Assembly: GCA_021789495.1 (NCBI GenBank)
Contig: JAJYJM010000001.1
Span: 4,018-68,017, forward strand
Source: Nitrospirota bacterium
Lineage (GTDB): Bacteria; Nitrospirota; JACRHJ01
Direction of reading: 5' to 3'
DNA: 64,000 nt
The position numbers and the translations under genes were made by a program. Positions 1,641 through 36,036 of the stretch are shown here, in pieces. The first letter of the stretch is position 1, and every line of letters begins with the position of its first letter. The notes under the pieces were generated by a model. It was given only the letters and a program-made list of their open reading frames with translations. It was not told the origin of the DNA and did not search any database.

Positions 1641-1657
<17 letters not shown>
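407..1657 (+). CDS. amidohydrolase family protein (MTA/SAH or aminodeoxyfutalosine deaminase-like)
   Basis: TTG start. PGLVNAHTHLELS metal-binding motif and overall chlorohydrolase/MtaD-like architecture. Directly followed by mqn radical SAM genes. Confidence 0.75.
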
Positions 1658-2720
<1,063 letters not shown>

Positions 2721-2738
2721 GAAAGGGACGAAAAAACC

Positions 2739-2852
2739 TGGATTCCCGATTAAATCAATCGGGAATGACGAACAAAAGCAGACTGTCATTCACGCGAAAG
2801 CGGGAATCCAGTGACTTTCATAACTCACCTAAATCATTCGGGAATGACAGGT
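2739..2852. repeat. cluster of short repeat segments: hairpin attcccgat-N7-atcgggaat, a TGTCATTCACGCGAAAGCGGGAATCC copy and an inverted partial copy
   Basis: Read directly in the mqn intergenic spacer. Related to copies at 17488, 31177, 43466, 45811, 50238 and 50763. Confidence 0.6.
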
Positions 2853-2854
2853 AA

Positions 2855-3994: not shown

Positions 3995-4035
3995 GTTGAA
4001 AATAAAACAATCCCTCTCCCGGCAACAGTCGGGAG
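3995..4035 (-). terminator. rho-independent terminator-like hairpin (ccctctcccg-N8-cgggagaggg followed by T-run on minus strand)
   Basis: Perfect 10 bp GC-rich stem. Downstream T-rich tract when read on the minus strand. Lies downstream of the minus-strand lipoprotein gene. Confidence 0.45.
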
Positions 4036-4146
4036 AGGGTGCTTAAAAACTAAGCATCTTTAAAAAATATAAGCAAATTTTAATCTGAAAACGGTTGTCA
4101 TTTAAATGACGGAACCATATAAAATATAAAATTTATCGTCAAGAAA

Positions 4147-4827
4147 TTAACGGCTTGAGATTTTCACCAGCAAATCCCGCAGGGACTGGTTGTCCAGGAT
4201 GCCCTTGTTTATGAGTTTTGCGAGCGCCTTGTCGAGCCGTTTTATCAGCTTGTTGCGGTCGGAAGTCGTCAGCTTGTTCTCCGACTGTGCCTTGTAATCC
4301 GACCAGAGCACGTCGCCGGTCTTTACATCCAGCACGTAAAGTTTAAACGAGCCTGTAACTTTGACATGGCTTCCGACGAGATTCCTCCTGGAATCCGCCA
4401 TGAAGTCCATAACCTTGGCGCCGAAGGCCACCTGTACGTCAGGATACTGCTCCATCAGCTCTTTCCGGACCTTCGCCGCGCTTTGCCTGTCGAGCGGAGT
4501 CGCAAGCCCGGTTCTGACCATTTTTACGCCGAGCCGGCCAAGTTCCGCCTCGATTGAATCCCGGAATACATCCGAGACCGTTTTATCGTTAATCTCGTAG
4601 CGCACGTTTCCGCTGTAATCCGTGCGCTTTATGATCTGTTTCGGATACGTTTGAGTCCCCTGCCTTGCGTCCACAACCGTCAGAAGCGTGCCGATTACGG
4701 GCTTCGGTATCATCGTTACCTGGCCCTGGTTCGCGTTATAGGATACGTTCAACCTTTCGCCGGCGCACCCGCTAAATACAAATACCAGTGAAATCAATGC
4801 AATATCCACTGCAACATTAAGTTTCAT
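4147..4827 (-). CDS. hypothetical lipoprotein
   Basis: Signal peptide with lipobox (VFSGC). No recognisable catalytic motifs. Confidence 0.5.
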   Translation of the reverse strand: MKLNVAVDIALISLVFVFSGCAGERLNVSYNANQGQVTMIPKPVIGTLLTVVDARQGTQTYPKQIIKRTDYSGNVRYEINDKTVSDVFRDSIEAELGRLGVKMVRTGLATPLDRQSAAKVRKELMEQYPDVQVAFGAKVMDFMADSRRNLVGSHVKVTGSFKLYVLDVKTGDVLWSDYKAQSENKLTTSDRNKLIKRLDKALAKLINKGILDNQSLRDLLVKISSR

Positions 4828-19934: not shown

Positions 19935-20860
19935 ATTGCCCCCCTCCCCTCGGTCAGTAGGTATATAATTGCCATCCGCACTGCAACCCCGTTCGTTACC
20001 TGGTCGAGGATAACGGAATACGGCCCGTCCGCCACCTCCGTCGAGATTTCGACCCCGCGGTTTATAGGCCCCGGATGCATAATAATAACCCCTTCTTTCG
20101 CAAGCCGGACACGCTCCTGGTTCAGGCCGAAGAATCTCGAATATTCCCTGACGCCGGGGAAAAGCCCGCTTTTCTGCCGCTCCATCTGTATCCGGAGCAT
20201 CATAACGACGTCCGCGCCGTCGATTGCATCCTCCGGCCTGAAATAAACCTTCGCGCCCATTTTTTCAATATCGGCAGGTATGAGAGTCGCCGGGCCGCAT
20301 AAACGAACATTCGCACCCATCTTGTTAAGGCAGAGGATATTAGAGCGCGCGACCCTGCTGTGGGCGATGTCGCCGATTATGGCTATATTGAGCCCCTCGA
20401 CCCTCCCCAGCCGCTCTTTTATGGTAAACAAATCGAGGAGCGCCTGGCTCGGGTGTTCGTGAGAGCCGTCGCCCGCATTTATTACGGAACTTTTAAGCGC
20501 TTTGGCGAGTATCATGGGCGCGCCGGACATTGAGTGCCGGACGATTATCATGTCCGAGTTCATCGCCTCGATATTGCGCGCCGTGTCGAGCAGCGTCTCG
20601 CCCTTCACGACGCTGCTTGTGGAAGACGATATGTTTATGATGTCGGCGGAGAGCCTCTTTGCCGCAAGCTCGAAGGACGTCCTTGTCCGGGTCGAGGGCT
20701 CGAAGAAAAGGTTTACAATCGTCCTGCCCCTCAGCGCCGGGACCTTCTTGATGTCCCTGGTAGAAACCTCCTTGAAGGATTCCGCCGTGGAGATAATCTC
20801 TTCTATCTCGGCTTTCTCAAGGTAATCTATCCCCAGCAGGTCTTTTTTCTTCAGGGCCAT
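19931..20860 (-). CDS. pyrB: aspartate carbamoyltransferase catalytic subunit
   Basis: STRTRTSFE carbamoyl-phosphate binding motif. HPxQ-like region. Confidence 0.9.
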
Positions 20861-20866
20861 TTGAGT

Positions 20867-21418
<552 letters not shown>

Positions 21419-21437
21419 TTAACCTCTGCACGAAAGC

Positions 21438-21580
21438 AAAAAAAAAGCCTCCCACGTAATTTTGGGATGCTCCGTTATTGAAACTCGCCTGCCATATCAG
21501 CCCCCCTTTTTAGCCTCGCCGGGCTATGTTAAAGGTCGGCTATTAAACTACCCTATCCTGAGGCGCATGTCAAGGCAAAT
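21438..21580 (-). promoter_or_regulatory. pyr operon leader: sigma70-like promoter, PyrR-binding loop and intrinsic terminator (attenuator)
   Basis: All read on the minus strand. Promoter is -35 TTGACA (21568-21573), 17 nt spacer, -10 TAGTTT. PyrR-binding loop AGCCCGGCGAGGCU (21512-21525) matches ARUCCNGNGAGGYU at 13 of 14 positions. Terminator is hairpin GCAUCCCA-loop-UGGGAGGC followed by U9 (21438-21470), immediately upstream of the pyrR TTG. Confidence 0.6.
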
Positions 21581-21945
21581 CAGCGCTGTATTTTGCTGTT
21601 CATGGAATCGATGGAAAAAGGAAACTCCCGTTTTATTCCGTAGCCGTAGTCTACCTCTTCGCTCCAGGAAAACTTTATCTCGACGCTTCCGTCGCTGTTT
21701 CTGATAAACGAGATATCGCTTCTCTTTATCGGGAGGCCCAGGTCGTCTATCTTTTTCATAAGGTCTCCGATTATGACGTTGTCGCTGTCTATCGTTGCGA
21801 GGCTTAACTGCTGGGAGACTTCGTCGTCCAGGGCATAGTAGTGCATGTAGGGAGGTACGGTCTTGATGACGGCGTAGATCGCCACTATCCCTATGAGTAT
21901 ATAAAGTAATGTTGCGGCCTTGCCGCCGCCGCGGTTGTTAAGCAT
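21580..21945 (-). CDS. hypothetical membrane-anchored protein
   Basis: Single N-terminal TM helix. No recognisable motifs. Immediately downstream of lepB. Confidence 0.4.
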   Translation of the reverse strand: MLNNRGGGKAATLLYILIGIVAIYAVIKTVPPYMHYYALDDEVSQQLSLATIDSDNVIIGDLMKKIDDLGLPIKRSDISFIRNSDGSVEIKFSWSEEVDYGYGIKREFPFSIDSMNSKIQR

Positions 21946-21949
21946 TTTT

Positions 21950-22564
21950 TTATTTCACCAGGCGTCCTATCCTGTTCCACCGGACAGAGTCGTTGTTTGC
22001 GTCCCATGACCAGTAAATAATCATCGCCTTGCCGAGTATCTTGCTTTCGTCCACAAATCCCCAGAATCTGCTGTCGCGGCTCCTGTCCCGATTGTCGCCC
22101 ATCATAAAATACTCGTGCGGGGGGACGGTTACCGGGCCGAAATTGTCCCTCGGCTCCAGCGCTCTCGGCAATATCTCGCTGTCTTTGTGAATCGTATAAG
22201 GCTCGGTGAGGGGCTTGCCGTTAATGTATACCACCTTGTCGATAACCTGCACGACATCGCCGGGCATGCCGATCAGTCTCTTTATGAAGTCCACGGATTC
22301 TTTCTCAGGATATTTGAATACGATTATGTCTCCCCTTTCGGGCTTGCGGATAGTCAGTATTTTAATGTTCGTGAAGGGTATGCGCGTGCCGTAGAGGAAC
22401 TTGTTCACGAGGATGTGGTCTCCGACCAGTATCGTGTTCTTCATCGACCCTGACGGTATTTTGAACGCCTGCACGACGAAAGTCCTTATGAAAAGCGCAA
22501 GGACCGCCGCGACGATAATTGCTTCCGCGTACTCCCGGAATACCGACTTCTTTTTCGCTGACAA
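21950..22564 (-). CDS. lepB: signal peptidase I
   Basis: S26 motifs: GSMKNT (Ser box), GDHILVNKF, GDNRDRSRDSR. Confidence 0.9.
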   Translation of the reverse strand: MSAKKKSVFREYAEAIIVAAVLALFIRTFVVQAFKIPSGSMKNTILVGDHILVNKFLYGTRIPFTNIKILTIRKPERGDIIVFKYPEKESVDFIKRLIGMPGDVVQVIDKVVYINGKPLTEPYTIHKDSEILPRALEPRDNFGPVTVPPHEYFMMGDNRDRSRDSRFWGFVDESKILGKAMIIYWSWDANNDSVRWNRIGRLVK

Positions 22565-22582
22565 TTTAGGTTACCTCCGATG

Positions 22583-24382
22583 TTAATCCTTTACCTTTAA
22601 TACCGCAAGGAACGCCTCCTGCGGCACCTCAACGGAACCGAGCTGCTTCATCTTTTTCTTCCCCTCCTTCTGCTTTTCAAGGAGCTTTCTCTTTCTGGTT
22701 ATGTCGCCGCCGTAGCACTTTGCGATTACATCCTTGCGAAGCGGCCTGACTGTCTCCCTGGCGATTATCTTGGAGCCTATCGCCGCCTGTATCGCCACCT
22801 CGAAAAGCTGCCGGGGTATCAACTCCTTCAGCTTAACCGCCAGTTCCCTGCCGCGCATGACCGCCTTGTCCTTGTGAGTTATCAGGGAAAGCGCGTCCAC
22901 GCCCTCGCCGTTCAATAATATGTCGAGCTTGACCAGGTCCGATTCCCTGTATCCGATGAAGTCGTAATCCAGTGATGCGTAGCCCCGGCTGACGGACTTC
23001 AGCCTGTCATAGAAATCCAGGACTATCTCGTTTAACGGCAGTTCGTAGGCTATCATCGAGCGGTCACGGTCCAGGTAGCTCAGGTCTTTCTGGATTCCCC
23101 GCCTCTCCTGGCACAGCGAGAGTATGGAGCCGATATACTCGTTCGGGACCATTATTGTCGCCAGTATGAAAGGTTCCTCCATCTTCTCAATCTTCTGGAG
23201 GTCGGGGAGTTTCGCGGGGTTGTCCACCATGACGACTTCCCCGTCCGTTTTCGTAATCCTGTAGACGACGGTGGGGGCGGTGGAAAGGAGGGACAGAGCG
23301 AACTCGCGCTCCAGGCGCTCCTGAATAATCTCCATGTGCAATAGCCCCAGGAACCCGCAGCGGAAACCGAATCCCAGCGCAAGCGAGGTCTCCGGCTCAT
23401 ACGAGAAAGAGGAGTCGTTGAGCCTGAGCTTTTCAAGGGCGTCCCGGAGGTCTTCGTACTGCTGCGTGTCCGTGGGATAAAGCCCGCAGAAGACCATCGG
23501 CTTTACCTCGCGGTAGCCCGGAAGCGGCTCCGGCGCGGGCCTGTCGGCAAAGGTGATTGTATCGCCTATTTTTGAGTCCTGCACCCTCTTTATCCCCGCT
23601 ATGATATAGCCTACGTCGCCCGCGGTAAGCTGTTCCGTCTTTATCAGTTTCGGGGTCGAATATCCTACCTCCATGACCTCTAATACCTTGTTATTCGAGA
23701 AAAGCTTTATCTTCGTCCCCTTGCCGACGCGCCCATCAACAACTCTCACCAGCACAACCACTCCCTGGTAGTTGTCGAACCAGGAGTCGAATATCAGGGC
23801 CTTTAATGGCGCGTCCGGGTCGCCCTGCGGGGGGCTGATTTTCTCCACCACCGCTTCGAGCGTCTCCCGTATCCCGATGCCTTCCTTCGCGCTTACGGGT
23901 ATCGCCTGGGAGGCGTCCAGGCCGATGACGTCCTCTATCTCCGTCCGCACGCGCTCGATGTCCGCGCTCGGAAGGTCTATCTTATTTATAACCGGGATTA
24001 TCTCAAGGTCGTTGTCTATGGCGAGGTATGCGTTCGCAAGCGTCTGTGCCTCCACGCCCTGCGAGGCGTCCACCACCAGAAGCACCCCTTCGCACGCGGC
24101 GAGGCTCCGGGAAACTTCGTAGGTAAAATCCACGTGTCCCGGCGTGTCGATAAGGTTCAGGATGTAGTCCTTCCCGTCCGCGGCCCGGAAGTTTATCCTT
24201 ACGGCATGGGCCTTTATGGTTATGCCGCGCTCGCGCTCAAGCGGCATGTCATCAAGGACCTGGTCTTCCATCTCGCGGGAACTGAGCGCGCCCGTAAGTT
24301 CGAGGATCCTGTCTGCCAGCGTGGACTTGCCGTGGTCTATATGCGCAATAATGCTGAAATTTCTTATATTCTGGATTTTCAT
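22583..24382 (-). CDS. lepA: elongation factor 4 (LepA)
   Basis: GTPase G1-G4 motifs ([17 protein letters not shown]). 599 aa with LepA C-terminal domain. Confidence 0.95.
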
Positions 24383-24418
24383 GCGAATTTAGAATTTTAT
24401 ACTGAATTTATTCTAAAG

Positions 24419-25390
24419 TCAAAGGGAAACAGGAGGTTTCGTTTTCAGCGCAAGTCCCGCCGCGCCGAGGATTCCGGCGTCGTCTTTGAGTTTTCCCCGG
24501 ACTATTCTGCACCGTTGCGCCGGTATTTTGAACGCCCTGGCCTGGACTTCCTCCCTGAGCGGCCCGATGAAAAGCTCCCATGCTCCGGACATCCCGCCCC
24601 CGATTACAACACACTCCATATTAAGAAGGTCAATTAGGTCGGCAATGGCGATACCAAGGTATTTACCGGCCTCCGAATAAATCCGCGCCGCCGCCCTGTC
24701 GCCTTTTTTCGCTGCATCCGCAATGGCTTCCGGCGTTAACATGCCGTTTTTCAGCAGGGTTTTCAGGGTGGTTTTCCCGTTCCCTGAGGCCGCGGATTCC
24801 GCCATTTCCATAACCGCCGTGGCCGAGGAATACCTCTCCAGGCACCCCCGGTTCCCGCACGGGCAGAGCGGCCCGTCCGGGTTTACGGTGATATGCCCGA
24901 CCTCTCCGGCCATGCCGTCCGCGCCCCGCCAGATGCCCCCGTCCAGAATTATACCCCCGCCGACCCCGGTGCCAAGTGTAATGCAGACCATGCTTTTTGC
25001 GCCCTTCCCGGCGCCGAACCAGTACTCGCCCAAGGCATAAGCGTTTGCGTCGTTTTCCACGTATACGGGGTATTGGAAGTTTTCGCTTAAGTGCGAGCGG
25101 AGCGGCACATCCCGCCAGCCTGGCAGGTTCGGGGAAAGCCGCACGATGCCATCCCTGGCCGATGTTATACCGGGGACTCCTATGCCGATTCCGGCCACTT
25201 CCAGCCCCATCGATTCCGCCTTCATGGCAAGCGTCCGGATGCCGCTCGTCAGCCTCTCAAGGACAATCTCCACCCCCTCCGTGGCCATTGTCCCGGTGAG
25301 ACGGCGCGAGATTATCTTTTCGTCCTCGCTCACCAGCCCGAAACGCAGGTTCGTGCCTCCGAGATCGACCCCTATGGCGGCTCTCTGCAA
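24419..25390 (-). CDS. ROK family glucokinase
   Basis: N-terminal DLGGTNLR ATP motif. ROK zinc motif CPCGNRGCLE. Confidence 0.8.
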   Translation of the reverse strand: MQRAAIGVDLGGTNLRFGLVSEDEKIISRRLTGTMATEGVEIVLERLTSGIRTLAMKAESMGLEVAGIGIGVPGITSARDGIVRLSPNLPGWRDVPLRSHLSENFQYPVYVENDANAYALGEYWFGAGKGAKSMVCITLGTGVGGGIILDGGIWRGADGMAGEVGHITVNPDGPLCPCGNRGCLERYSSATAVMEMAESAASGNGKTTLKTLLKNGMLTPEAIADAAKKGDRAAARIYSEAGKYLGIAIADLIDLLNMECVVIGGGMSGAWELFIGPLREEVQARAFKIPAQRCRIVRGKLKDDAGILGAAGLALKTKPPVSL

Positions 25391-25582
25391 CGGATTTTCT
25401 CCTTTAGGTTTGATTAACGAAAATAATAATTCCTCCGGCGCTTTTTGTCCACGATAAATTCAAGGAACCGTCCTTATAATAATAAATTTTCGCAACCTTG
25501 TATGCAAGGCTTGAAATTATTGAAGAAAAATAAATGTAAATTACCTTGAAATTTTTTCTTATACGTGGTATGTTTTTAAAGA

Positions 25583-27085
25583 ATGTGTTTTTCTAATCCG
25601 GATTCGGCCTTCAACCGAGTACTACTTATCCAGCCGCCTTTCTCAAGATGGCCTGGAGAAGCGAAAGTCGTGCAGCCGCCGCTTGGGCTTGCATACATCG
25701 CAGCCGTTCTTGAAAAGGACGGGTACACGGTCAAGATCATCGATGCGCCATTGGAAGGGTACGAAGAGGAAATAAAATTTTCTGATGGCAGACACAGATA
25801 CGGGCTGAGCTATGAGGAAATACTCAAGAGGGTTAAGGAATTCAGACCGGACATCATAGGCATATCCTGCTCTTTTTCGACCCTTTTTTACACGGTCTGC
25901 GAGTTAAGCCGCGAGATAAAGAAATTCGACAAGAGCATAAAGATATGCGTTGGCGGGGCACACCCGACATCTGTCCCGGAAGAGGTGCTTGAACGGGAGG
26001 AGATAGATTTCGTCATCATAGGTGAGGGCGAGGCCAGGTTCAGCCAGCTTCTTGCGGCCCTGTCGGCGGGAGAATCCCTTTCCGCGATTGACGGCCTGGG
26101 ATACAGGCAGGGTAACAAGGTTTTGATTAACCCGCCAGTGAACTACATCCGGGACCTCGATGAAATACCGTTCCCGGCGCGGCATCTGCTCGACATGGAA
26201 AAGTATCTCCGGATCAACAAGCCGCACGGGGTCTCGACGAAGGGTGACCGCGCGACGACCATCATAACGTCGCGCGGCTGTCCGGCGAACTGCATATTCT
26301 GCTCGATTCACGGCATCTGGGGCAGGAAGTTCAGGGTCAGGTCTCCTGAAAACGTTATAAAGGAAATAGAACTCTTGAAAACGCAGTACGGCATAGACGA
26401 GATCCTCTTCGAGGACGACAACCTTACCTTTGATAACAAACGGGCCGAGAAGATATTCGACCTTATGATCGACAAGGGCTTCAACCTGCACTGGAAAACC
26501 CCCAACGGCGTGGCGCTGTGGCGGCTTACTGAAACCTTGATTGCCAAGATGAGGAAAAGCGGGTGCTACCATCTGGCCTTTGCCATCGAGTCAGGAAACG
26601 ACCATGTGCTCCACGGGATAATCAAGAAACCGCTCAACCTTAAGAAGGTCAAAACTCTTATCGATGCGGCTAAGAGGTGCGGAATAATAGCTGAGGGCTT
26701 CTTTGTGCTGGGATTTCCGGGTGAGACCTTCGAGCAGATGAAAGAGACGTTCAAATATGCCCTGCATCTAGGGCTCGACAAGGCTAACTTCATGATAGCA
26801 ACGCCTTATCCGGGCACACGGCTGTATGAGGTCTGCGTCAAGGACGGCTATCTCGCCGACGGTTTCGACTACAAGGACCTGATTACGAGAAGGGCCAGCA
26901 TCAAGACTCCGGACTTTACGCCCGCGCAGGTGGAAAGATTCGTCTCCAGGTTGATTCTGAGTTTTCAGGCACACAGGATAATAAAAAACCCATTCGGAGC
27001 GTTTCGCATATTAACTACCAGGTTCATGTCCGACCCGATAACCATGTTCAAGTGGCTATTGGAAAGGGTAACGGAAGCCTGTTAA
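25583..27085 (+). CDS. B12-binding domain radical SAM protein (class B radical SAM)
   Basis: N-terminal cobalamin-binding Rossmann region (LLIQPP...PLGLAYIAA). SRGCPANCIFCS radical SAM motif. 500 aa. Confidence 0.75.
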   Translation: MCFSNPDSAFNRVLLIQPPFSRWPGEAKVVQPPLGLAYIAAVLEKDGYTVKIIDAPLEGYEEEIKFSDGRHRYGLSYEEILKRVKEFRPDIIGISCSFSTLFYTVCELSREIKKFDKSIKICVGGAHPTSVPEEVLEREEIDFVIIGEGEARFSQLLAALSAGESLSAIDGLGYRQGNKVLINPPVNYIRDLDEIPFPARHLLDMEKYLRINKPHGVSTKGDRATTIITSRGCPANCIFCSIHGIWGRKFRVRSPENVIKEIELLKTQYGIDEILFEDDNLTFDNKRAEKIFDLMIDKGFNLHWKTPNGVALWRLTETLIAKMRKSGCYHLAFAIESGNDHVLHGIIKKPLNLKKVKTLIDAAKRCGIIAEGFFVLGFPGETFEQMKETFKYALHLGLDKANFMIATPYPGTRLYEVCVKDGYLADGFDYKDLITRRASIKTPDFTPAQVERFVSRLILSFQAHRIIKNPFGAFRILTTRFMSDPITMFKWLLERVTEAC

Positions 27086-27175
27086 ATGGGGGACGCGCAG
27101 AAACGACGGTTAAAACAAACCGGCAAAAGCTGCGCTTACAAGTTGAATCCAGCCAATAACAACGGGACATCTGCC

Positions 27176-27577
27176 ATGAAAAACGTAGATGGTGTCAAGT
27201 ACAGAATGACCAAACAGAAGAGGGTTATCCTCGAAGTTCTGAAGAACACGAAGTCCCATCCGACGGCTGACTGGGTATACGACAGGGTGCGTAAAAAAAT
27301 ACCCAATATCAGCCTCGGCACGGTGTACAGGAACCTCAATATTCTGAAAAACCAGGGAGAGATACTCGAGCTGTCCTACGGCAAAGGTTTCAGCCGGTTC
27401 GACGGCAATGCGTCGAGGCATTACCACTTCACCTGCGAGCACTGCGGCAGGATACTCGACATCGAGACCCCGGAATTTATAGAGATGGAGCATGAGGTCG
27501 CCAGACGGATGGGCGTAAAAGTGGCGCGGCATCGCCTTGAATTCTACGGCTCCTGCCCGGACTGCATGACCGACTGA
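27176..27577 (+). CDS. Fur family transcriptional regulator (Fur/PerR/Zur)
   Basis: Winged-helix N-terminus (RVILEVL...HPTADWVY). HYHFTCEHCG and CPDC metal-site motifs. The longer listed ORF starts 1 nt after the rSAM stop, so the internal Met was chosen. Confidence 0.8.
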   Translation: MKNVDGVKYRMTKQKRVILEVLKNTKSHPTADWVYDRVRKKIPNISLGTVYRNLNILKNQGEILELSYGKGFSRFDGNASRHYHFTCEHCGRILDIETPEFIEMEHEVARRMGVKVARHRLEFYGSCPDCMTD

Positions 27578-27600
27578 TATATCCTTACTTACGGCACCGG

Positions 27601-28095
27601 ATGACTCAATCACTCAAGCTCGAAGAATCTTTTTTGAAGATAGCCTCGGATGAGGCGCTTCCCTTAAGACTTACCCTCGCCAACCGCGAAAGGCTGACCG
27701 GCGTGGTAAAATCGGTCGGGAAATACGACCTGACGCTCGAATCCGAAGGGCGCGTAGTCGCGCTTATGAAAAAGGAAGTCTTCCAGGCGATTCCCCCGCG
27801 CGACATCCTCGATGAATCCTTCTTCAAAGCCCCGATGGACGAAGAGCAGTTTCCGCAGAAATCCCGCGTGCAGGACGAGTTCCTGAGCCGCTTTGTAAAG
27901 GAGCGGACTCTCGCCCTCCTGCGGCTCATAAACGGCGAAGAAATCCGGGGCGTCATAGACGGCTACGACGGCTTCACCATCTCCATAAGGACCGGCAGGG
28001 GCCAGGCTATGATATACAAGCACGGTATATGCAGCATCAGCCCCGGTTACAGGCGGCGGCAGACCGGCAGCCCGGCTTCAGTCGAGGGAAAATGA
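27601..28095 (+). CDS. Hfq-like protein with two tandem Sm domains
   Basis: Two repeats match the Hfq pattern (QSL..FLN..R.E..PV.I.L.NG..L.G.I.SFD.F.ILL.....Q.MVYKHAIS). The second carries the MIYKHGI Sm2 motif. Confidence 0.6.
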   Translation: MTQSLKLEESFLKIASDEALPLRLTLANRERLTGVVKSVGKYDLTLESEGRVVALMKKEVFQAIPPRDILDESFFKAPMDEEQFPQKSRVQDEFLSRFVKERTLALLRLINGEEIRGVIDGYDGFTISIRTGRGQAMIYKHGICSISPGYRRRQTGSPASVEGK

Positions 28096-28493
28096 ACGGC
28101 AATCCGTTTGACGATACGCTCGAAGAGTTTTATTCCAGGGGAACGGAGGCCGCTTTTGTCCTGAAAGACGGCTCCCGGCTCACAGGCAGGATAAAGCGGT
28201 TCGACGGCTATGTCGTTTTCCTTGAAAACGGCGCCGAGATGATGGTATATCGCCATTCAATCCTGAAACTCTCCGAAGCCGCGGCGCAGGATCGCGCCGA
28301 GACTCAGACGCGCCCGTTATCCGAACCCAAGACGGCTCCAGCGCCGAAATCCCGCCCGAAAACCCTTCCGCGCCCCAAAAGACCGCCCAGAAAGGAACAG
28401 TCTTTTTCCGTCCAGCAGAAGGAGCCGGGGGCTGTTTCCAGGATGGGGGAAGAGCTCCTGAAGTGGCTTAAAAACCAGAAGGGCAATGAGTAA
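28092..28493 (+). CDS. Hfq-like Sm domain protein with basic Pro/Lys-rich C-terminal tail
   Basis: A third Hfq-like domain (LTGRIKRFDGYVVFLENGAEMMVYRHSI). ATGA stop/start overlap with the preceding ORF. Low-complexity tail. Confidence 0.6.
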   Translation: MNGNPFDDTLEEFYSRGTEAAFVLKDGSRLTGRIKRFDGYVVFLENGAEMMVYRHSILKLSEAAAQDRAETQTRPLSEPKTAPAPKSRPKTLPRPKRPPRKEQSFSVQQKEPGAVSRMGEELLKWLKNQKGNE

Positions 28494-30021
28494 CATTTCC
28501 CTGTTTTTCCTCCCCGTTATCTCCGGCATCCTCCTCGCGCTGTCCTTCCCGAAGCCGGACATGTCCGCCCTGGCATGGGTCGCGCTCGTCCCGCTCCTTT
28601 ACTCGATACGGGAAAAAACGCCCCGGCAATCCTTCAAAGAGGGCTTCGCCGCCGGAATAGTCTTTTATACCGTTTCCCTGAAATGGGTTCTTATAGTCAT
28701 GCGGCAGTACGGGGGGCTTGGTTTAATCCCAAGCTTTTTCCTGCTCATCGCGCTCTCGGCCTATCTCGCCCTTTATGTCGGCGCGTTCGCGTGGCTGTAT
28801 GCAAAGGCGCGCGCATATGCCGGGCAGGCGGCGCTCTTCCCGGCCCCTGCGTTCTGGGCGGCGTTGGAACTGCTGCGGAATTACGCCATCTCCGGCTTCC
28901 CCTGGAACCTGCTCGGATATTCCCAGCACAATAACCTGCCCATGATACAGATTGCCGACATTACCGGCGTTTACGGCGTGTCCGCCTTGATTGTCCTTGT
29001 AAACGCGGCGATTGCCGAACTTGTGGCCATAATGGCCCGCAGGGAATATGCAAACTACAGAAAATATATTATGCCCATCATAGCCTCGGCGGTTTTTGCG
29101 GCATGCGCTTTATATGGAAATTACCGCCTTGCGAACCTCCCGCGTCCTTACGGCTCCATGAGGATAACCCTCGTCCAGGGGGATATTGACCAGTTTCATA
29201 AATGGAACCCGGCCTTTCAGGACAAGGTATTCGATATTTACAAGAACCTTACGGCCGAAGCCGCCGCGCAGAAAAACCGTCCGGACCTGATAATCTGGCC
29301 TGAGACGGCCACTCCGTTCTGCTTTCAGGACAGCGGCATGGAGGCGCAGCTTAAAGACGCGGTAAGGAAGGCGGATACATGGCTTCTGACCGGCAGCCCG
29401 TCGATTGAGGAAAAGAACGGCGACGACATAGAATACAACAGCGCGTATCTGCTTGACCCGTCGGGCCGGGAGGCCGGTCGCTACGACAAGACCCATCTTG
29501 TCCCATTCGGGGAATATGTGCCGATGCAGACCTTCCTGCCGTTCGTGAACAAGATGGTTCACGGCATAGGCGACTTCGGCGCAGGCACGGAATATACCGT
29601 TATGCGCACCGACAAGGGCGCTTTCGGGACGGCTATATGTTTCGAGGTGATATTCCCGGAGCTTGTCCGAAAGTTCGCGCTTAACGGCGCTACTTTTCTC
29701 GCCACCATAACAAACGACGCGTGGTTCGGGAACTCCGGCGCGCCGTATCAGCATTTCGACATGGCGGTCTTCCGGGCGGTGGAGAACAGGAGGGCGATGG
29801 TGCGCGCCGCCAATACGGGTATCTCCGGAATTATCCTGCCGTCGGGAAGGGTATCCGCCGAAACGGAAATCTTCACGCGCGGCGAGATAACGGGAAATAT
29901 CCCACTGATGGATAAAATGACATTCTACACCCGGCACGGGGACGTTTTCGCCTATTTATGCTCTGGAATAACAGCGCTCTTTATTGGTATAATCCTATCC
30001 AGGAGGTTTATAAAGACATGA
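28486..30021 (+). CDS. lnt: apolipoprotein N-acyltransferase
   Basis: Multi-TM N-terminus plus CN-hydrolase domain with catalytic CFE (ICFEVIFPE). Confidence 0.9.
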   Translation: MSNISLFFLPVISGILLALSFPKPDMSALAWVALVPLLYSIREKTPRQSFKEGFAAGIVFYTVSLKWVLIVMRQYGGLGLIPSFFLLIALSAYLALYVGAFAWLYAKARAYAGQAALFPAPAFWAALELLRNYAISGFPWNLLGYSQHNNLPMIQIADITGVYGVSALIVLVNAAIAELVAIMARREYANYRKYIMPIIASAVFAACALYGNYRLANLPRPYGSMRITLVQGDIDQFHKWNPAFQDKVFDIYKNLTAEAAAQKNRPDLIIWPETATPFCFQDSGMEAQLKDAVRKADTWLLTGSPSIEEKNGDDIEYNSAYLLDPSGREAGRYDKTHLVPFGEYVPMQTFLPFVNKMVHGIGDFGAGTEYTVMRTDKGAFGTAICFEVIFPELVRKFALNGATFLATITNDAWFGNSGAPYQHFDMAVFRAVENRRAMVRAANTGISGIILPSGRVSAETEIFTRGEITGNIPLMDKMTFYTRHGDVFAYLCSGITALFIGIILSRRFIKT

Positions 30022-31155
30022 TAACGATGGAAGAGGTTCAGCGGGAGCTGGCTCGCCTCCAGGACAGGGTCTCGGCCCTGGGGAGGCATCTTTGACATAC
30101 CGGCCAAGGAGAGGCGCGTCCGGGAGATAAACGCACTTATGGAGGCGCAGGGGTTCTGGGAAAACGCCGAGGCCGCGCAGTCGCTCATGAAGGAGAAGAC
30201 CGCGCTCCAGAACTCCATAGCGTCATGGGAATCCCTGAGCAAGGCGTCCGAAGACCTGTCGGTCATGCTGGAGCTTTCCTCTGAGGAAGGTGGCGAAGCC
30301 CTGGTTTCGGATATAGATGCGGGGATGCAAAAACTCGCCCATGACGTGGACTCGGCGGAACTTGAGCTTATGCTCTCAGGCGAAAACGACAGGCTGAACG
30401 CCATCCTCACAATCCATCCCGGCGCGGGCGGCACGGAATCCCAGGACTGGGCGGAAATGCTCCTTCGGATGTACCTGCGGTGGGCGGAGCGGAGCGGCTT
30501 CAGGACGGACATCATAGACTCGCTGCCCGGCGAAGAGGCTGGCATCAAGAGCGTGACGGTCGAGGTAATCGGCAAAAACGCGTTCGGCTATTTGAAGGCC
30601 GAGGCCGGAGTCCACAGGCTGGTAAGGATTTCCCCCTTCGACGCCAACAAGAGAAGGCACACGAGCTTCGCGTCCGTCTTCGTATATCCGGAGGTCGAGG
30701 ACGACGTAAAGATAGAGATAGACGAAAAGGACCTGCGGATAGACACCTACCGCTCCTCCGGCGCGGGCGGCCAGCACGTAAACAAGACCTCCTCCGCAAT
30801 ACGCATCACGCACATCCCGACGAACATTGTCGTGCAGTGCCAGGACGAGCGTTCGCAGTTCAAGAACAAGGACAAGGCGTTCAAGGTCCTGCGCTCCCGC
30901 CTCTACGACCTGGAGGTGAAGAAGAAGGAAGAGGAGCGCGATAAAATTAACAGCACGAAAAAGGACATCACCTGGGGAAGCCAGATACGCTCCTACGTCT
31001 TCATGCCCTACCAGATGGTAAAAGACCACAGGACGGGCCACGAGGTCGGCAATATAGGCGCCGTCATGGACGGAGACATAGACGGCTTCATCGAGGCGTA
31101 TCTCCTGGGCAAGCGCGCCCAGCCGGGTGAGGAAAACGCCGATAAACTATCATAA
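30018..31155 (+). CDS. prfB: peptide chain release factor 2, with programmed +1 ribosomal frameshift
   Basis: ORF0 starts at ATG 30018 and ends at the in-frame TGA at 30093. The shift site GGGAGG CAT CTT TGA C sits at 30081-30096. The +1 frame continues into the main ORF with the SGAGGQHVNKT GGQ motif. Confidence 0.85.
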
Positions 31156-31176
31156 CTCCCCCGATAAAGGAAGGTC

Positions 31177-31202
31177 GTCATTCTGAACGAAGTGAAGAAT
31201 CC
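31177..31202 (+). repeat. copy of dispersed repeat (GTCATTCTGAACGAAGTGAAGAATCC)
   Basis: Read directly. Overlaps the annotated GTG start of the following gene. Confidence 0.6.
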
Positions 31203-31845
31203 GCCCTTAGTTATTGACGAGCTTTTGCGACATTACAAGTCACGCAAAGCCGAAATACGCGCCCGCCTCGCCGAGTTCAAGGAAACATGGCGGCAGGGAG
31301 ACCTTGCGATATTCAAGGAACTCTGCTTCTGTATCCTGACGGCGAACACCTCCGCGAGGATGGGCATCACCTGCATCGAGGCTGCGGACGACGACATTCT
31401 GACCGCCGACGCCGAAGGCATACGGAATATCCTCTGCGGCAGATACCGCTTCTGGAAGACCCGTCCGAATTATATTGTGCATACGCGGGAATACTTAAAA
31501 AGCGAGTGCGGCCTTAAAATCAAGAGGCAAATCGAATCCCTGTCAGACTTTCACGAGCGCCGCGATTTCTTCGCCGACAACCCCGGCGTCAAGGGCCTGG
31601 GCTACAAAGAAGCGAGCCACTTCCTGCGGAACATCGGTTTTGAAGGCTACGCAATCCTCGACATACACGTAGTCCGCCTGCTGCACGAACTGGGCGTGCT
31701 CCCGGAGGCGAGACGCCCGGCGAACAGGAAGCAGTATGTCTTCATGGAAGAGAGGATGCGCGAGTTTTCAAAGGACATCAAAATCGGGATGGATGACCTC
31801 GACCTCGCACTATGGAGCTACAGGACGGGGGAAATACTGAAGTAG
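31192..31845 (+). CDS. N-glycosylase/DNA lyase (Ogg2/archaeal-type 8-oxoguanine DNA glycosylase)
   Basis: HhH-GPD pattern with conserved K and D (KGLGYKEASHFLRNIG...ILDIH). Confidence 0.75.
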   Translation: MKNPPLVIDELLRHYKSRKAEIRARLAEFKETWRQGDLAIFKELCFCILTANTSARMGITCIEAADDDILTADAEGIRNILCGRYRFWKTRPNYIVHTREYLKSECGLKIKRQIESLSDFHERRDFFADNPGVKGLGYKEASHFLRNIGFEGYAILDIHVVRLLHELGVLPEARRPANRKQYVFMEERMREFSKDIKIGMDDLDLALWSYRTGEILK

Positions 31846-31859
31846 CCGCCTTTATTCCC

Positions 31860-31888
31860 TTGACCTGCCTGCAATTTCTTTCTATAAT
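31860..31888 (+). promoter_or_regulatory. sigma70-type promoter upstream of lysS
   Basis: -35 TTGACC, 17 nt spacer, perfect -10 TATAAT. A GAGAGG Shine-Dalgarno lies 8 nt before the ATG. Confidence 0.55.
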
Positions 31889-31921
31889 TCCAAGACGTTA
31901 TAATTCACGAGAGGAATAATA

Positions 31922-33406
31922 ATGCTTGAGGACAACGAGCTGATACAGGTACGTAAAAAGAAACTCGAAGAGCTTCACGCGATGGGAATAAACCCTTACG
32001 GGCAGCGCTACGAAGTAAAAGACCACGCTAAGGAACTTCACAACAAATACGGTGAAACCTCCAAGGAAGAACTGGAGAACAACAAAGTCCAGGTAAAAGC
32101 GGCGGGGAGAATAGTCGCACTCAGGAGCTTCGGCAAGGCCGCATTTGCGCACATACTCGACGCGAGCGGCAAGATCCAGATTTACATGAAGCGCGACATG
32201 CTGGGCGAGGAGCAGTTCAAGCTGATGAACCTGCTGGATGTCGGCGACCATATCGGCGTCGAAGGTTTTCTCTTTCGCACGAAGACAAACGAACTGACAA
32301 TAGAGGTGGAGAAGCTTGCGCTTTTGTCCAAATCGCTTCGGCCTCTGCCTGAGAAATGGCACGGCCTGACCGACATCGAGACCCGCTACCGCCAGAGATA
32401 CGTGGACTTAATCGTAAACCCGGAAGTCCGCGATACGTTTGTCACGCGCAACAGGATAATAAAAGCGATACGCGCGTTTCTGGAAGGGCTGGGGTTCCTT
32501 GAAGTCGAGACGCCGATGATGCAGAGAATTCCAGGCGGTGCGACCGCAAGGCCGTTCATCACGCACCACAACGCGCTGGACATGGATTTATACTTGCGTA
32601 TCGCACCGGAACTTTATTTGAAGCGCCTCATCGTAGGCGGCCTTGAAAGGGTATTCGAGCTTAACAGGAACTTCAGGAACGAGGGCATCTCCATAAAACA
32701 CAATCCTGAATTCACGATGCTCGAATTTTATATGGCATATGCGGACTACCGCGTCCTTATGGACCTGACAGAGGAACTGTTTGCCCATACCGCCCAGGAT
32801 ATGAAAGGAAGCCTGAAGTTTACATATCAGGGCGACGAAATAGATCTGACTCCTCCCTGGCCGCGCATGAGTATGGAAGAGGCCATTGTAAAATTCGCGG
32901 GAGCTCCCGCCGGGGATTTAGGCGACCTTGAGAGCGCGCGGCAGTTCGCAAAGAAAAATAACGTGCCGCTCGAAGACGACCTCTCTCTTGCGAAAGTGGT
33001 CAACGAGATATTCGAGAAAACAACTGAATTTAAGATAATGAACCCGGTGTTTATCACCGACTATCCAGTCGAACTATCCCCGCTCTCGCGCAGGAATGAC
33101 AAGAATCCGGACATGGTAGACCGCTTCGAGCTTATAATCGCAGGTCGGGAAATGGCGAACGCGTTCTCCGAACTTAACGACCCTCAGGATCAGCTATCGC
33201 GCTTTCAGGATCAGGTCGCTCAACGTGAAAAAGGAGACCAGGAAGCGCAATTCATGGACGAGGACTATATTCGCGCGTTAGAATACGGTATGCCTCCGAC
33301 TGCCGGAGAGGGAATAGGAATCGACCGCCTCGTGATGCTGATGACTGACTCGCCGTCAATTCGTGATGTAATCCTTTTTCCGCAGCTTCGGAAAGAGCAG
33401 CCTTAG
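31922..33406 (+). CDS. lysS: lysine--tRNA ligase (class II)
   Basis: OB-fold N-terminus. Class II motifs (FRNEG, GGGIGIDRLVM). Confidence 0.95.
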   Translation: MLEDNELIQVRKKKLEELHAMGINPYGQRYEVKDHAKELHNKYGETSKEELENNKVQVKAAGRIVALRSFGKAAFAHILDASGKIQIYMKRDMLGEEQFKLMNLLDVGDHIGVEGFLFRTKTNELTIEVEKLALLSKSLRPLPEKWHGLTDIETRYRQRYVDLIVNPEVRDTFVTRNRIIKAIRAFLEGLGFLEVETPMMQRIPGGATARPFITHHNALDMDLYLRIAPELYLKRLIVGGLERVFELNRNFRNEGISIKHNPEFTMLEFYMAYADYRVLMDLTEELFAHTAQDMKGSLKFTYQGDEIDLTPPWPRMSMEEAIVKFAGAPAGDLGDLESARQFAKKNNVPLEDDLSLAKVVNEIFEKTTEFKIMNPVFITDYPVELSPLSRRNDKNPDMVDRFELIIAGREMANAFSELNDPQDQLSRFQDQVAQREKGDQEAQFMDEDYIRALEYGMPPTAGEGIGIDRLVMLMTDSPSIRDVILFPQLRKEQP

Positions 33407-34633
33407 ATGTCTTACTCCTCTTTTATCGCGCTCCGCTACTTGAAAGGCAAGCACAAGCGCGCGCCTATCTCGCTCAATACCATCATCTCCATCGGCGGCG
33501 TGGCGCTTGGCGTTATGACGCTTATCGTCGTGCTTTCCGTGATGAGCGGGTTCGAGAACGACCTGGAAAGCAAAATCCTCGGCACCAACTCCCCCATTAT
33601 AGTAACGTCATTCTACGACAAGGGCATAGCGGATTACGGCGTCCAGATGAAGAAGCTACAGGCGATCCCTCACGTTGTCTCCGTCGCTCCGTTTACATAC
33701 AGCGAGGTCATGCTCACATCTCCCAACAGCGTCTCCGGGATAATCCTGAAAGGTGTTGACCCCTCGTCCATAGGAAAGGTTACAAAGCTCTCGAAGACAA
33801 TGGTCTCCGGGAGCATATCTGGTCTCTCAGCGCCCGGTTCCGCGCCTGGAATACTTCTTGGGCGGGAATTGGCTGTCAACCTCGACGTGCGGATGGGAGA
33901 CAAGGTGCGGGTGGTATCTCCGTTCGGCACCATAACCCCGCTCGGCCCGGCGCCGAAGTTCAAGGAATTCACAGTCCGCGGGATTTTCGACACCGGCATG
34001 TACGAATACGACTCCAAGCTTGCGTACATATCCATCCCGGAGGCGCAGAAATTCTTCGGATTCGGAGATTCCATCACGGGCTTCGAGGTGCGGATAGACG
34101 ACCTTGGCAGAGCCGCGCCATTGGCCAAAACGATACAGAAACGCCTCGGCTTTCCGTTTCGCGCGCAGGACTGGATACAGATGAACCGGAGCCTTTTCTC
34201 CGCGCTGAAGCTTGAGAAGATTACCATGTTCGTCATACTCGTGCTTATCATCATAGTCGCGTCTTTCAACATCGTCAGCACGCTCATAATGATAGTCATG
34301 GACAAGGCGAGAGAGATTGCGATACTCAAGTCAATGGGTGCGACAAATAGAGGCATAATGAAAATATTCATGATAAACGGCACGATTATCGGACTCGTCG
34401 GGACGTTCATCGGGCTTGCGGGCGGGCTTGGGATATGTCTTATCGTAGAGAAAACACATCTGATAACGCTCCCCAGCGATATTTATTACATCAACCATCT
34501 GCCCGTAAGGATGGACCCTGTCGAGATAATAGTCGTGTGCGCTTCCGCCATAATAATCAGTTTCGGGGCGACGCTTTATCCGTCCCGGCAGGCGGCGAAG
34601 CTCGACCCGCTTGAGGCCCTCAGGTACGAATAA
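33407..34633 (+). CDS. lipoprotein-releasing system permease (LolC/LolE family, FtsX-like)
   Basis: MSYSSFIALRYLKGKHK N-terminus, 4 TM helices with large periplasmic loop, MacB/FtsX-like C-terminus. Confidence 0.85.
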   Translation: MSYSSFIALRYLKGKHKRAPISLNTIISIGGVALGVMTLIVVLSVMSGFENDLESKILGTNSPIIVTSFYDKGIADYGVQMKKLQAIPHVVSVAPFTYSEVMLTSPNSVSGIILKGVDPSSIGKVTKLSKTMVSGSISGLSAPGSAPGILLGRELAVNLDVRMGDKVRVVSPFGTITPLGPAPKFKEFTVRGIFDTGMYEYDSKLAYISIPEAQKFFGFGDSITGFEVRIDDLGRAAPLAKTIQKRLGFPFRAQDWIQMNRSLFSALKLEKITMFVILVLIIIVASFNIVSTLIMIVMDKAREIAILKSMGATNRGIMKIFMINGTIIGLVGTFIGLAGGLGICLIVEKTHLITLPSDIYYINHLPVRMDPVEIIVVCASAIIISFGATLYPSRQAAKLDPLEALRYE

Positions 34634-34646
34634 AGGAGGTAATGGC

Positions 34647-35297
34647 ATGAGACTTAAAACTATCGCGGCTTTCGTGGTATTCTCCGTCTTTATCGCTTCC
34701 CAGGCGTTTTGCGCCGGGACGGGCGGACAGATCTCTTCCAATTCCGGCTTCCTGCTTCAGGGCTCGGTATACAAGCAAAGCGGCGCGATAAGGAACGGAA
34801 TCATCGTCATCCACACAAGCTGGAAGCTTCCGGCCATCGCGCCCACGTACAGGTACGATTTCGATATCCTTCGCGGCAATACGGAAGGCAGCCTTTACAG
34901 CTTCATGCTCTCCGACGTCTCCCGGATGGAGTTCCTGCCCGTCGAAGGCGACAGACAGCCGGTGAACATACTGCTCAGAAACGGCGCGATGCAGAAAGTG
35001 ATACTGTCGTCTGAGAGCGAAGGCATTTTCGGCAACATGAACCTGCAAGTGAAAGAAGTGGACGTCTTTACGCGCTACGGAGAGAATATAATCTCCGGCG
35101 GAGACGTCCAGAAGATAGTATTCACCGCCCCGCCAGATATGCAGAACCAGTCCCTTGGCGACGTGATAAACCTGCTCGGCAAGACGCTCCATGCAGGCGC
35201 GAAGGACGGGCTGGCGGATAAAAAATTTATGACCGTGCTGGAAAAATTATATTCAAGGCTGAAGGTAAAGGCCGGAGAAATTAGCGGAAACAAGTGA
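34647..35297 (+). CDS. secreted hypothetical protein embedded in lol operon (possible LolA/LolB-like carrier)
   Basis: AAGGAGG Shine-Dalgarno. Cleavable signal peptide. GTGA overlap with the lolD start. No recognisable motifs. Confidence 0.4.
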   Translation: MRLKTIAAFVVFSVFIASQAFCAGTGGQISSNSGFLLQGSVYKQSGAIRNGIIVIHTSWKLPAIAPTYRYDFDILRGNTEGSLYSFMLSDVSRMEFLPVEGDRQPVNILLRNGAMQKVILSSESEGIFGNMNLQVKEVDVFTRYGENIISGGDVQKIVFTAPPDMQNQSLGDVINLLGKTLHAGAKDGLADKKFMTVLEKLYSRLKVKAGEISGNK

Positions 35298-35977
35298 GCG
35301 CTCCGTTCATCATATCCGTCCACGGCCTGCTGAAATCGTTCCGCATGGGAGACTCCGAGGTCTCGGTCCTGAAGGGCATCGACCTCGACATCCCGCATGG
35401 GGAAATGCTTTCCATTGTCGGCGCGTCGGGCGTCGGGAAAAGCACCCTTCTGCACGTAATCGGGGCGCTGGACAAACCCACGTCCGGCCAGGTCCTCTAC
35501 GACGACAGGGACATCTTCGGAATGCCTGACAGGGAGCTTGCCTCGTTCAGGAACAAAAATATCGGGTTCGTGTTCCAGTTCCATCACCTCCTGCCGGAGT
35601 TCTCCGCCCTTGAGAATGTCCTGATACCGTCCATGATAGGGGGTATCGACCCGAAAACGGCGAGGCTCCGCGCCGAGGCGCTGCTCGATGAAGTGGGGCT
35701 TTCCGGGCGGCTTATCCACCGGCCCGGCGAGCTTTCCGGCGGGGAACAGCAGAGGGTGGCAATCGCCAGAGCGCTGATGTCCGAGCCCAAGGTAATGCTC
35801 GCGGACGAACCTACCGGCAACCTCGATACGCATACCGCACAATCCGTGCACGAGCTTTTAAAGAAGCTGAACCGGGAAAAGGGCCTCACTTCCATAATTG
35901 TGACGCACAACGAGAAGCTTGCCGGGATGGCCGACAGGACGATACGCATGGTGGACGGCATCATATATCGCCCATAG
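35294..35977 (+). CDS. lolD: lipoprotein-releasing system ATP-binding protein
   Basis: Walker A GASGVGKST. LSGGEQQRVAIARAL signature. Confidence 0.9.
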   Translation: MSAPFIISVHGLLKSFRMGDSEVSVLKGIDLDIPHGEMLSIVGASGVGKSTLLHVIGALDKPTSGQVLYDDRDIFGMPDRELASFRNKNIGFVFQFHHLLPEFSALENVLIPSMIGGIDPKTARLRAEALLDEVGLSGRLIHRPGELSGGEQQRVAIARALMSEPKVMLADEPTGNLDTHTAQSVHELLKKLNREKGLTSIIVTHNEKLAGMADRTIRMVDGIIYRP

Positions 35978-36036
35978 GCGCTTTTGCGGTTATTTCCCCG
36001 TTTCTTGAATCTGACAGGACTTCTTTGGAAGAACTT

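Follow-up and report, generated by a model that had tools for sequence, protein, structure and literature searches.

A tightly linked gene pair encoding three non-equivalent Hfq-type Sm domains in uncultured Nitrospirota, a candidate hetero-oligomeric Hfq system

INTRODUCTION

Among Sm proteins, Hfq is the standard example of a homo-hexamer, and the transition from homomeric to heteromeric rings is generally credited to archaea and eukaryotes. Departures from a single, single-domain protein occur in bacteria: Bacillus anthracis has three such proteins, Hfq1 to Hfq3, and a tandem Hfq was reportedly described in Novosphingobium by Sun and colleagues in 2002. The usual bacterial complement is one Sm protein, Hfq, per genome (PMC3710371); genomes with several hfq genes are known, as in Burkholderia, which has hfq and hfq2 (PMC6200039), and Sm hexamers of the (A-B-C)x2 type are documented for Lsm(6-5-7)2 and Sm(F-E-G)2 (PMC3710371). 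Tandem Hfq as such is already catalogued, under the curated model NF010691. Here, we describe two adjoining genes, designated hfqT and hfqS, in a 64,000-nucleotide stretch of contig JAJYJM010000001.1 (positions 4,018 to 68,017; assembly GCA_021789495.1) of a Nitrospirota bacterium, the whole of which is referred to below as the window and whose own numbering is used for all coordinates unless a relative is named. Together, these genes encode three Hfq-type Sm domains, two fused in HfqT (D1 and D2) and one in HfqS (D3).

It is proposed that hfqT and hfqS constitute a three-paralogue Hfq system whose products may assemble into a hetero-oligomeric T2S2 pseudo-hexamer, a reading to which we assign a probability of about one half. 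The comparison on which it draws comprises approximately 30 independent contigs from different projects, collected by scanning genomes and metagenomes and by looking up contigs. In the literature on tandem, duplicated, fused and heteromeric Hfq and on the Hfq of Nitrospirota, no description of a coupled 2+1 module was found, in agreement with an initial reading of the window from its letters and open reading frames (here termed the sequence-only reading), which knew of no described system of this architecture. We could not find a precedent for a conserved and coupled 2+1 set of non-equivalent paralogues in which one domain is degenerate, another carries YRH, the tail ends in a conserved tip and the genes are linked to lnt.

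RESULTS AND DISCUSSION

Three Hfq-type Sm domains in two overlapping genes

The gene hfqT (27601 to 28095 on the plus strand, as are all window features given below) encodes a tandem Hfq of 164 amino acids, which comprises the divergent domain D1 (amino acids 1 to 68; 27601 to 27804), a linker of approximately 20 residues delimited by model confidence and alignment (amino acids 69 to 88; 27805 to 27864), the canonical domain D2 (amino acids 89 to 149; 27865 to 28047) and a basic tail. The gene hfqS (28092 to 28493) encodes 133 amino acids from a conserved ATG and comprises D3 (amino acids 1 to 62; 28092 to 28277), a basic disordered region rich in proline, lysine and arginine (amino acids 63 to 115; 28278 to 28436; net charge +7) and a C-terminal amphipathic helix, SRMGEELLKWLKNQKGNE (28437 to 28490). 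The hfqT stop and the hfqS start overlap in an ATGA at 28092-28095, and a GAGGGA Shine-Dalgarno sequence for hfqS is located within the 3' end of hfqT (28084 to 28089), 2 nt before the ATG; the corresponding motif, GAGGGAA(A/C)ATG, is common to the loci L001 to L006.

All three domains are Hfq-type. HfqT matches the Pfam Hfq model PF17209 in two stretches (E = 1.2e-20, 73.3 bits; cut-off, 27) and the NCBIfam model TIGR02383 with 76.2 bits, above its cut-off of 61.7, and HfqS matches PF17209 (E = 3.2e-9, 36.7 bits) and reaches 34.3 bits with TIGR02383, which is under that cut-off. When submitted alone to PF17209, D2 and D3 score 58 bits (E = 6.7e-16) and 39 bits (E = 6.8e-10), respectively; D1 scores 18.9 bits (E = 1.2e-3), under the 27-bit gathering score, and passes no curated threshold. 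The assignment of D1 is based on profile-profile comparison (hhalign), for which per-domain profiles were built from 11 orthologues each, and on structure prediction. The D1 profile matches that of canonical Hfq with 98.1% probability (E = 1e-13) and the D3 profile does so with 98.9% (E = 1.5e-17), the comparison of D1 with D3 being weaker (95.7%). The Pfam LSM model PF01423 yields E values of 0.09 to 0.16 and 12 to 13 bits, under its cut-off of 23.4, and the domains are thus not Lsm-type. The HfqS tail alone has no Pfam match.

AlphaFold2 models based on the family alignment display a helix followed by five strands, twice, in HfqT, with a predicted local distance difference test (pLDDT) score of 81 to 91 for D1 and 73 to 83 for D2. 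HfqS is modeled as one Sm fold (pLDDT of ~90), followed by 45 disordered residues of the basic region (pLDDT of <50) and a terminal helix at residues 117 to 130. Within the D1-D2 linker, residues 77 to 87 are disordered (pLDDT of <50); apart from LLDESFF, a motif conserved within it, the linker is variable. The top Foldseek matches in the Protein Data Bank (PDB) are all Hfq crystal structures, with template modeling (TM) scores on the target of 0.86 to 0.92 (~0.9 for HfqT and 0.86 for D3) and root mean square deviations of 1.1 to 1.6 Å. The PDB chains which match the HfqT profile are all single-domain proteins of 63 to 114 residues and all align to D2, and no solved tandem Hfq structure was found among the Foldseek and profile matches in the PDB. 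No further hfq is present in the 64-kb window, in which tblastn, with the Hfq sequences of Escherichia coli, Staphylococcus aureus and Bacillus subtilis as queries, finds only the three domains.

Much of the sequence-only reading is thereby borne out. It had recognized three Hfq-like Sm domains in a 2+1 arrangement across two ATGA-overlapping reading frames, on which the Pfam, NCBIfam, profile-profile and AlphaFold/Foldseek results agree, as well as a basic Pro/Lys-rich tail on the second frame; the search with PF17209 that it had called for places both HfqT and HfqS above the cut-off and D1 alone below it. The Sm2 signatures which it had assigned to the second and third domains, YKH in D2 and YRH in D3, proved to be invariant across the relatives.

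Residue complement and selection by domain type

Considered in E. coli Hfq numbering, the three domains differ in the RNA-contacting residues which they retain. D2 possesses Q8, D9, F39/Y, D40, F42, Y55-K56-H57, K17 and R19, such that its entire proximal uridine/3'-end pocket is intact together with part of the rim patch. In D3, the pocket walls are preserved (F39, D40, Y42 and Y55-R56-H57), F11 is lost and a hydrophobic side chain (F/L/I/V) stands in place of Q8. D1 exhibits the exchanges Q8 to E and D40 to G, carries (M/P/L)K(K/H/Q)E at the position of YKH and has an acidic rim; from the pocket set, it retains only Y42 and pore-facing lysines. The proximal set (Sm2 YKH, Q8 and F/Y42) is therefore complete in one of the three domains, D2, and the distal A-tract residues Y25 and I30 are kept by none of them.

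In a neighbor-joining tree of the domains, the support in which is modest due to an alignment of 67 columns, D1 sequences of all lineages cluster with 75% bootstrap support and D2 sequences are intermingled with canonical Hfq. Every lineage carries the type motifs PK(K/H)E in D1, YKH in D2 and YRH, the tail and GEELLKWL in D3/HfqS, and these motifs, coupled with the fixed gene order, support the distinction of three domain types independently of the tree.

The ratio of nonsynonymous to synonymous substitution rates (dN/dS), computed against four relatives which are unsaturated at synonymous sites, is 0.06 to 0.13 for D1, 0.03 to 0.08 for D2 and 0.10 to 0.19 for D3. All three domains are under purifying selection, and D1, given its low ratio, is not a decaying copy. 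The basic disordered region is relaxed, not neutral, at 0.17 to 0.47, and the C-terminal motif of HfqS, at 0.00 to 0.05, is as constrained as the canonical domain D2.

The HfqS tail and its C-terminal helix

The layout of HfqS is constant in all lineages, consisting of a YRH Sm domain, a basic disordered stretch and a C-terminal motif. Thirteen HfqS tails were measured, and in 12 of them the basic stretch spans 43 to 91 residues with a net charge of +5 to +10, the exception being locus L017, where it amounts to 15 residues with a net charge of +1. The C-terminal motif, (M/L)GEELLKW(L/M), is recognizable in partners which are otherwise only 25 to 30% identical: it reads MGEELLKWLKNQKG in the window, MKEGLLRWMQEQK in L014, LGEELLKWLKK in L016, LAEEIAKWLRSQ in L017 and MGRELLKWMQR in L018, and W125 of HfqS is invariant. 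Its hydrophobic moment is 0.5 to 0.8, compared with 0.44 ± 0.11 for the shuffled window tail, and the net charge of the helix in the window is near zero. In its architecture, this C-terminal amphipathic helix resembles a membrane-targeting or docking helix.

In locus L019 (5521 to 7606), the HfqS C terminus and lnt look disrupted, with the tail out of register, an lnt product of 409 amino acids and extra small reading frames, which are probably assembly indels; this locus was left out of the tail analysis.

Conservation and gene order of the hfqT-hfqS module

A word-indexed search retrieved 24 HfqT homologues of approximately 160 amino acids and 14 HfqS homologues, and all named members are uncultured Nitrospirota metagenome-assembled genomes. 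In an exhaustive profile search, the family is represented by one sequence at 50% identity and is followed by distant tandem Hfqs at E values of 1e-23 to 1e-10. At every locus where the sequence reaches, the order is hfqT-hfqS-lnt. In the window, lnt (28486 to 30021), encoding an apolipoprotein N-acyltransferase with the Pfam domains LNT_N and CN_hydrolase, begins 8 nt before the end of hfqS, with which its start overlaps; spacings among hfqT, hfqS and lnt, and in the closer family also the regulator discussed below, are -8 to +23 nt. In the closer family, prfB comes after lnt at all loci with sufficiently long contigs. The junction between hfqT and hfqS varies across the loci (overlaps of 4, 11, 20, 23 or 32 nt or gaps of 2 to 8 nt) and always separates two genes, with D1 and D2 fused in frame in all of the ~30 loci and the conservation of the HfqS N termini beginning at a separate ATG.

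Five distant loci (L014, L016, L017, L018 and L019), whose HfqT is 23 to 32% identical to that of the window, span four or five deep lineages. A tandem Hfq is followed by a second Hfq gene, lnt and prfB in L014/L015, L016 and L018, where the second product comprises 124, 191 and 125 amino acids, respectively. In L017, a second gene of 90 amino acids precedes lnt, after which an FAD-dependent oxidoreductase is encoded instead of prfB, and in L019, whose assembly appears error-prone, a second gene of 124 amino acids, lnt and prfB are present with two small opposite-strand reading frames between them. Judged from this distribution, the hfqT-hfqS module is much older than the window's family and would be ancient within Nitrospirota-like lineages. 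The upstream genes of the distant loci differ (PTPS, a VTT-domain protein and a penicillin-binding protein), which places the regulator outside the conserved core.

The usual downstream neighbor of canonical hfq is hflX. In L014/L015, hflX (1546 to 3150) is located 1.9 kb upstream of hfqT (start at 5001) with no hfq directly before it, which may mean that the tandem module is the sole Hfq there. A tandem Hfq with two canonical domains served as a control: at its locus, L021, neither a partner hfq nor lnt is present. The gene (4001 to 4468) encodes 155 amino acids with two YKH domains and lies among ThiF/E1-like, Prok-E2 and intein-containing UvrD genes, a setting which looks like a defense or mobile-element context.

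A proposed T2S2 assembly and its alternatives

Co-transcription and translational coupling would be expected to yield HfqT and HfqS in a ratio of approximately 1:1, and with about equal amounts of the two proteins the simplest closed Hfq-type ring would be T2S2, that is, (D1-D2-D3)x2, with two-fold instead of six-fold symmetry. The segment of HfqT which follows strand β5, together with the N terminus of HfqS, amounts to ~23 residues, which compares with the ~20 to 22 residues of the D1-D2 linker, so that D3 could follow D2 in the ring as D2 follows D1. Such a ring would present two canonical uridine/3'-end sites (D2), two altered sites (D3) and two largely degenerate sites (D1), and only two long basic arms, both from HfqS, instead of six; these arms are predicted to function in RNA capture and annealing, and the amphipathic helix at each tip may attach to the ring itself, to a partner protein or to the inner membrane. 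The overall function is envisaged as the binding and chaperoning of RNA in the manner of Hfq by an inherently asymmetric ring, the expression of which may, in the closer Nitrospirota family, be tied to a metal or peroxide sensor of the PerR/Fur type. The more far-reaching proposal, that the (D1-D2-D3)x2 ring is obligate and would represent the first natural bacterial Sm ring of non-equivalent paralogous positions, with two basic arms bearing a docking helix, is made tentatively and is, in our estimation, somewhat short of an even chance.

Several observations support T2S2: hfqT and hfqS are never found apart in the ~30-contig sample; the motifs of the three domain types recur in every lineage, and all three domains are under purifying selection; the internal Shine-Dalgarno sequence and the 4-nt overlap in the window are matched by equally tight, differently built junctions in the relatives; and the losses of pocket residues are complementary between D1 and D3. 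A number of points weigh against it. The HfqT monomer model has a predicted TM score of only 0.53 and does not define how D1 and D2 are oriented toward each other, D3 sequences form a weak clade in the domain tree (41% bootstrap only), and we infer RNA binding from residue conservation alone. Furthermore, common descent could account in part for the conserved gene order, and each protein could close a ring by itself.

This last point leads to the alternative that the two genes specify separate rings, a T3 ring of alternating D1 and D2 and an S6 ring with six basic tails, which would serve different RNA clienteles, a division put forward for species with more than one hfq gene, and be merely co-expressed. 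Six domains are indeed within reach of HfqT without HfqS (3x2) and of HfqS alone (6x1), partnerless tandem Hfqs exist, as seen in L021 and in the curated tandem model NF010691 of NCBIfam, and the PDB Hfq chains which match the HfqT profile are all single-domain. Nevertheless, the strict co-occurrence and adjacency of hfqT and hfqS over deep divergence, with translational coupling, speak for a joint product, the distinct pocket losses in D1 and D3 would be borne more readily by a mixed ring in which D2 is present, and equal numbers of T3 and S6 would require chains in a ratio of 1:2, which the 1:1 coupling does not fit; separate rings are considered the less likely reading. Less probable still is a role for the Sm fold as a scaffold which has drifted away from small RNA chaperoning toward envelope or lipoprotein biogenesis with Lnt, or toward translation termination with release factor 2 (RF2), in which case the terminal helix would serve in membrane targeting or Lnt docking. 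It is consistent with this idea that lnt is the one neighbor kept wherever the contig reaches, often with overlapping stop and start, that the distal A-tract residues are absent from all three domains and that a folded domain, a long linker and a terminal amphipathic helix with a moment of 0.5 to 0.8 recall targeting sequences of the MinD/FtsA type. Gene neighborhood alone, however, constitutes weak evidence for joint function, the helix of the window, with its near-zero net charge, is atypical of membrane-targeting helices, the strongly basic tail is as expected of nucleic-acid binding, and the complete proximal RNA pocket of D2 is under very strong constraint (dN/dS of 0.03 to 0.08).

Finally, a single-base error could create the 4-nt overlap, in which case the window would hold a single three-domain gene broken by a frameshift, or three standard hfq genes. 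Such an artefact is ruled out by ~30 assemblies with six or more junction geometries and frames, by the in-frame fusion of D1 and D2 and by the conserved HfqS N termini, and its probability is negligible; the two genes are genuine, in line with the sequence-only reading, which had named a sequencing frameshift as the circumstance that could overturn it. The T2S2 pseudo-hexamer is the reading that we prefer; that a 2+1 arrangement could build a pseudo-hexamer had been suggested by the sequence-only reading.

Upstream regulator, radical SAM insertion and downstream genes

In the open reading frame listing of the window, hfqT, hfqS and lnt belong to a set of five tightly packed plus-strand genes, the first two of which encode a radical SAM protein and a Fur-family regulator. 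The regulator frame can be read from 27086, yet its first 30 codons (27086 to 27175) are not conserved and overlap an insertion whose 3' border lies at 27160; because the genes of the relatives encode 132 to 133 amino acids and homology to them supports it, the start is assigned to the ATG at 27176, giving a protein of 133 amino acids (27176 to 27577). This protein matches PF01475 with 114 bits, PerR models with 114.5 and 111 bits (cut-offs, 200 and 180) and Fur models with at most 89 bits (cut-offs, 146 to 220). By best model score it looks more like PerR, with all models under their equivalog cut-offs. In the closer family, and only there, the regulator is a neighbor of hfqT, which it precedes at all loci with upstream sequence. 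In one Nitrospirota sublineage, a gene for an Rrf2-family regulator is interposed between the Fur-family gene and hfqT (L010, 605 to 1012; L011, 491 to 898), and the module there is thus located behind two redox- or metal-type regulators.

The radical SAM gene (25583 to 27085) is contained in a window-specific insertion of 1.6 kb (25571 to 27160), which lies outside the system: in blastn comparisons with L020, L001 and L004, homology ends at 25570 and resumes at 27161, the relatives having ~35 bp here, and no match to a radical SAM gene was found in any of the ~30 loci, including L020, whose HfqT is 95% identical. Its product, a radical SAM protein of class B, scores 87.9 bits with PF02310 (B12 binding) and 85.5 bits with PF04055, and its best subfamily model is NF038361 (Sden_1168 P-methyltransferase) at 339.8 bits, well under the cut-off of 575. 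Within the promoter-like site that precedes the regulator (25546 to 25574), the insertion falls at the -10 region, before the regulator start codon, and the radical SAM gene is, on this account, probably now transcribed from that site.

These results revise the sequence-only reading in its account of the upstream genes. A B12-dependent radical SAM enzyme had been taken to lead the cluster; the gene is rejected as a system member in view of its absence from all relatives and the mapped insertion. Its end was placed 1 nt before the Fur frame, which is correct for the extended frame beginning at 27086 and not for the real start at 27176. Linkage to Fur had been taken to evoke iron-responsive regulation, of which the presence of a Fur-family regulator upstream stands; the iron-Fur connection as the core of the system is downgraded, given the PerR-like scores and adjacency confined to the closer family, and the universal partner is lnt.

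Downstream of lnt, prfB (30028 to 31155) carries a +1 frameshift site of the classical, autoregulatory type, consisting of an SD-like GGGGAGG, the 3-nt spacer cat and CTT TGA C (30079 to 30096), on account of which the listed prfB reading frame begins only at 30139. An Ogg-type N-glycosylase/DNA lyase gene (31192 to 31845; NF002305, 191 bits, above cut-off) follows prfB, and its position is kept in closer relatives, before lysS. No RNA family was found in an Rfam scan of 20000 to 36000, and promoter and terminator scans gave no signal above shuffled expectation.

Significance

If the mixed ring proposed here is formed, bacteria would have arrived independently at a counterpart of the Sm/Lsm heteromers of eukaryotes. 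Three specialized Hfq paralogues, two of them fused and with different pocket losses, would provide a simple and expressible natural model of only two genes, with which it could be addressed how duplication and complementary degeneration give rise to ring asymmetry, what number of intact proximal sites and tails is required by an Hfq ring and which role is played by disordered tails. The findings also bear on annotation, as public records name both proteins simply "RNA chaperone Hfq" or, for one entry, "hypothetical protein," and on the hosts themselves, environmentally widespread uncultured Nitrospirota in which post-transcriptional regulation is essentially uncharted.

Comparison with known Hfq and Sm/Lsm systems

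The module shares with the canonical Hfq of E. coli, S. aureus and B. subtilis the Sm fold and, in D2, the same pocket of Q8, F42 and YKH, and E. coli Hfq likewise has a disordered C-terminal extension. Canonical Hfq, however, is one domain from one gene which forms a homo-hexamer with six identical sites, whereas the module comprises three non-equivalent domains on two chains, with D1 devoid of the Sm2 signature, D3 devoid of Q8 and no known distal A-site residues. The tail of HfqS is basic with a conserved amphipathic tip, as opposed to the acidic tail tip of canonical Hfq, and the genes adjoin lnt and prfB, canonical hfq being located in a miaA-hfq-hflX context.

The tandem Hfqs of NF010691/PRK14091 and related proteins, for example Paenibacillus WP_175381859, resemble HfqT in that they harbor two Hfq domains within ~150 to 175 amino acids. 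In double-canonical tandems, both domains are near-canonical with YKH, and these proteins score 92 to 213 bits with NF010691 (the closest two, 196 and 213). HfqT attains 43 bits with this model of 176 positions, and distant D1-type relatives attain 25 to 64 bits; with a cut-off of 270 bits, membership of HfqT in this tandem-Hfq equivalog is rejected by score.

Bacteria with multiple hfq genes also possess more than one Hfq-type protein, one of them with a long C-terminal extension, as in the module. To our knowledge, their paralogues are unlinked and near-canonical, in contrast to the adjacent, coupled and co-occurring genes with complementary residue losses described here, and mixed rings have not been reported for the hfq paralogues of Burkholderia or B. 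anthracis.

The eukaryotic Sm/Lsm heteromers, which comprise hetero-heptamers as well as the hexamers named above, differ from the module in that its domains are Hfq-type, that two of its three paralogues are fused and that its hetero-assembly is one that we infer. They provide a parallel in organization, as they consist of several diverged paralogues, each with a conserved identity, and bear basic tails on some subunits only, such as the RG-rich tails of SmB, SmD1 and SmD3; in the hfqT-hfqS module, the long basic arm is carried by HfqS, and motifs and gene order point to three domain types, of which the tree separates D1 with 75% and D3 with 41% bootstrap support, D2 being mixed with canonical Hfq.

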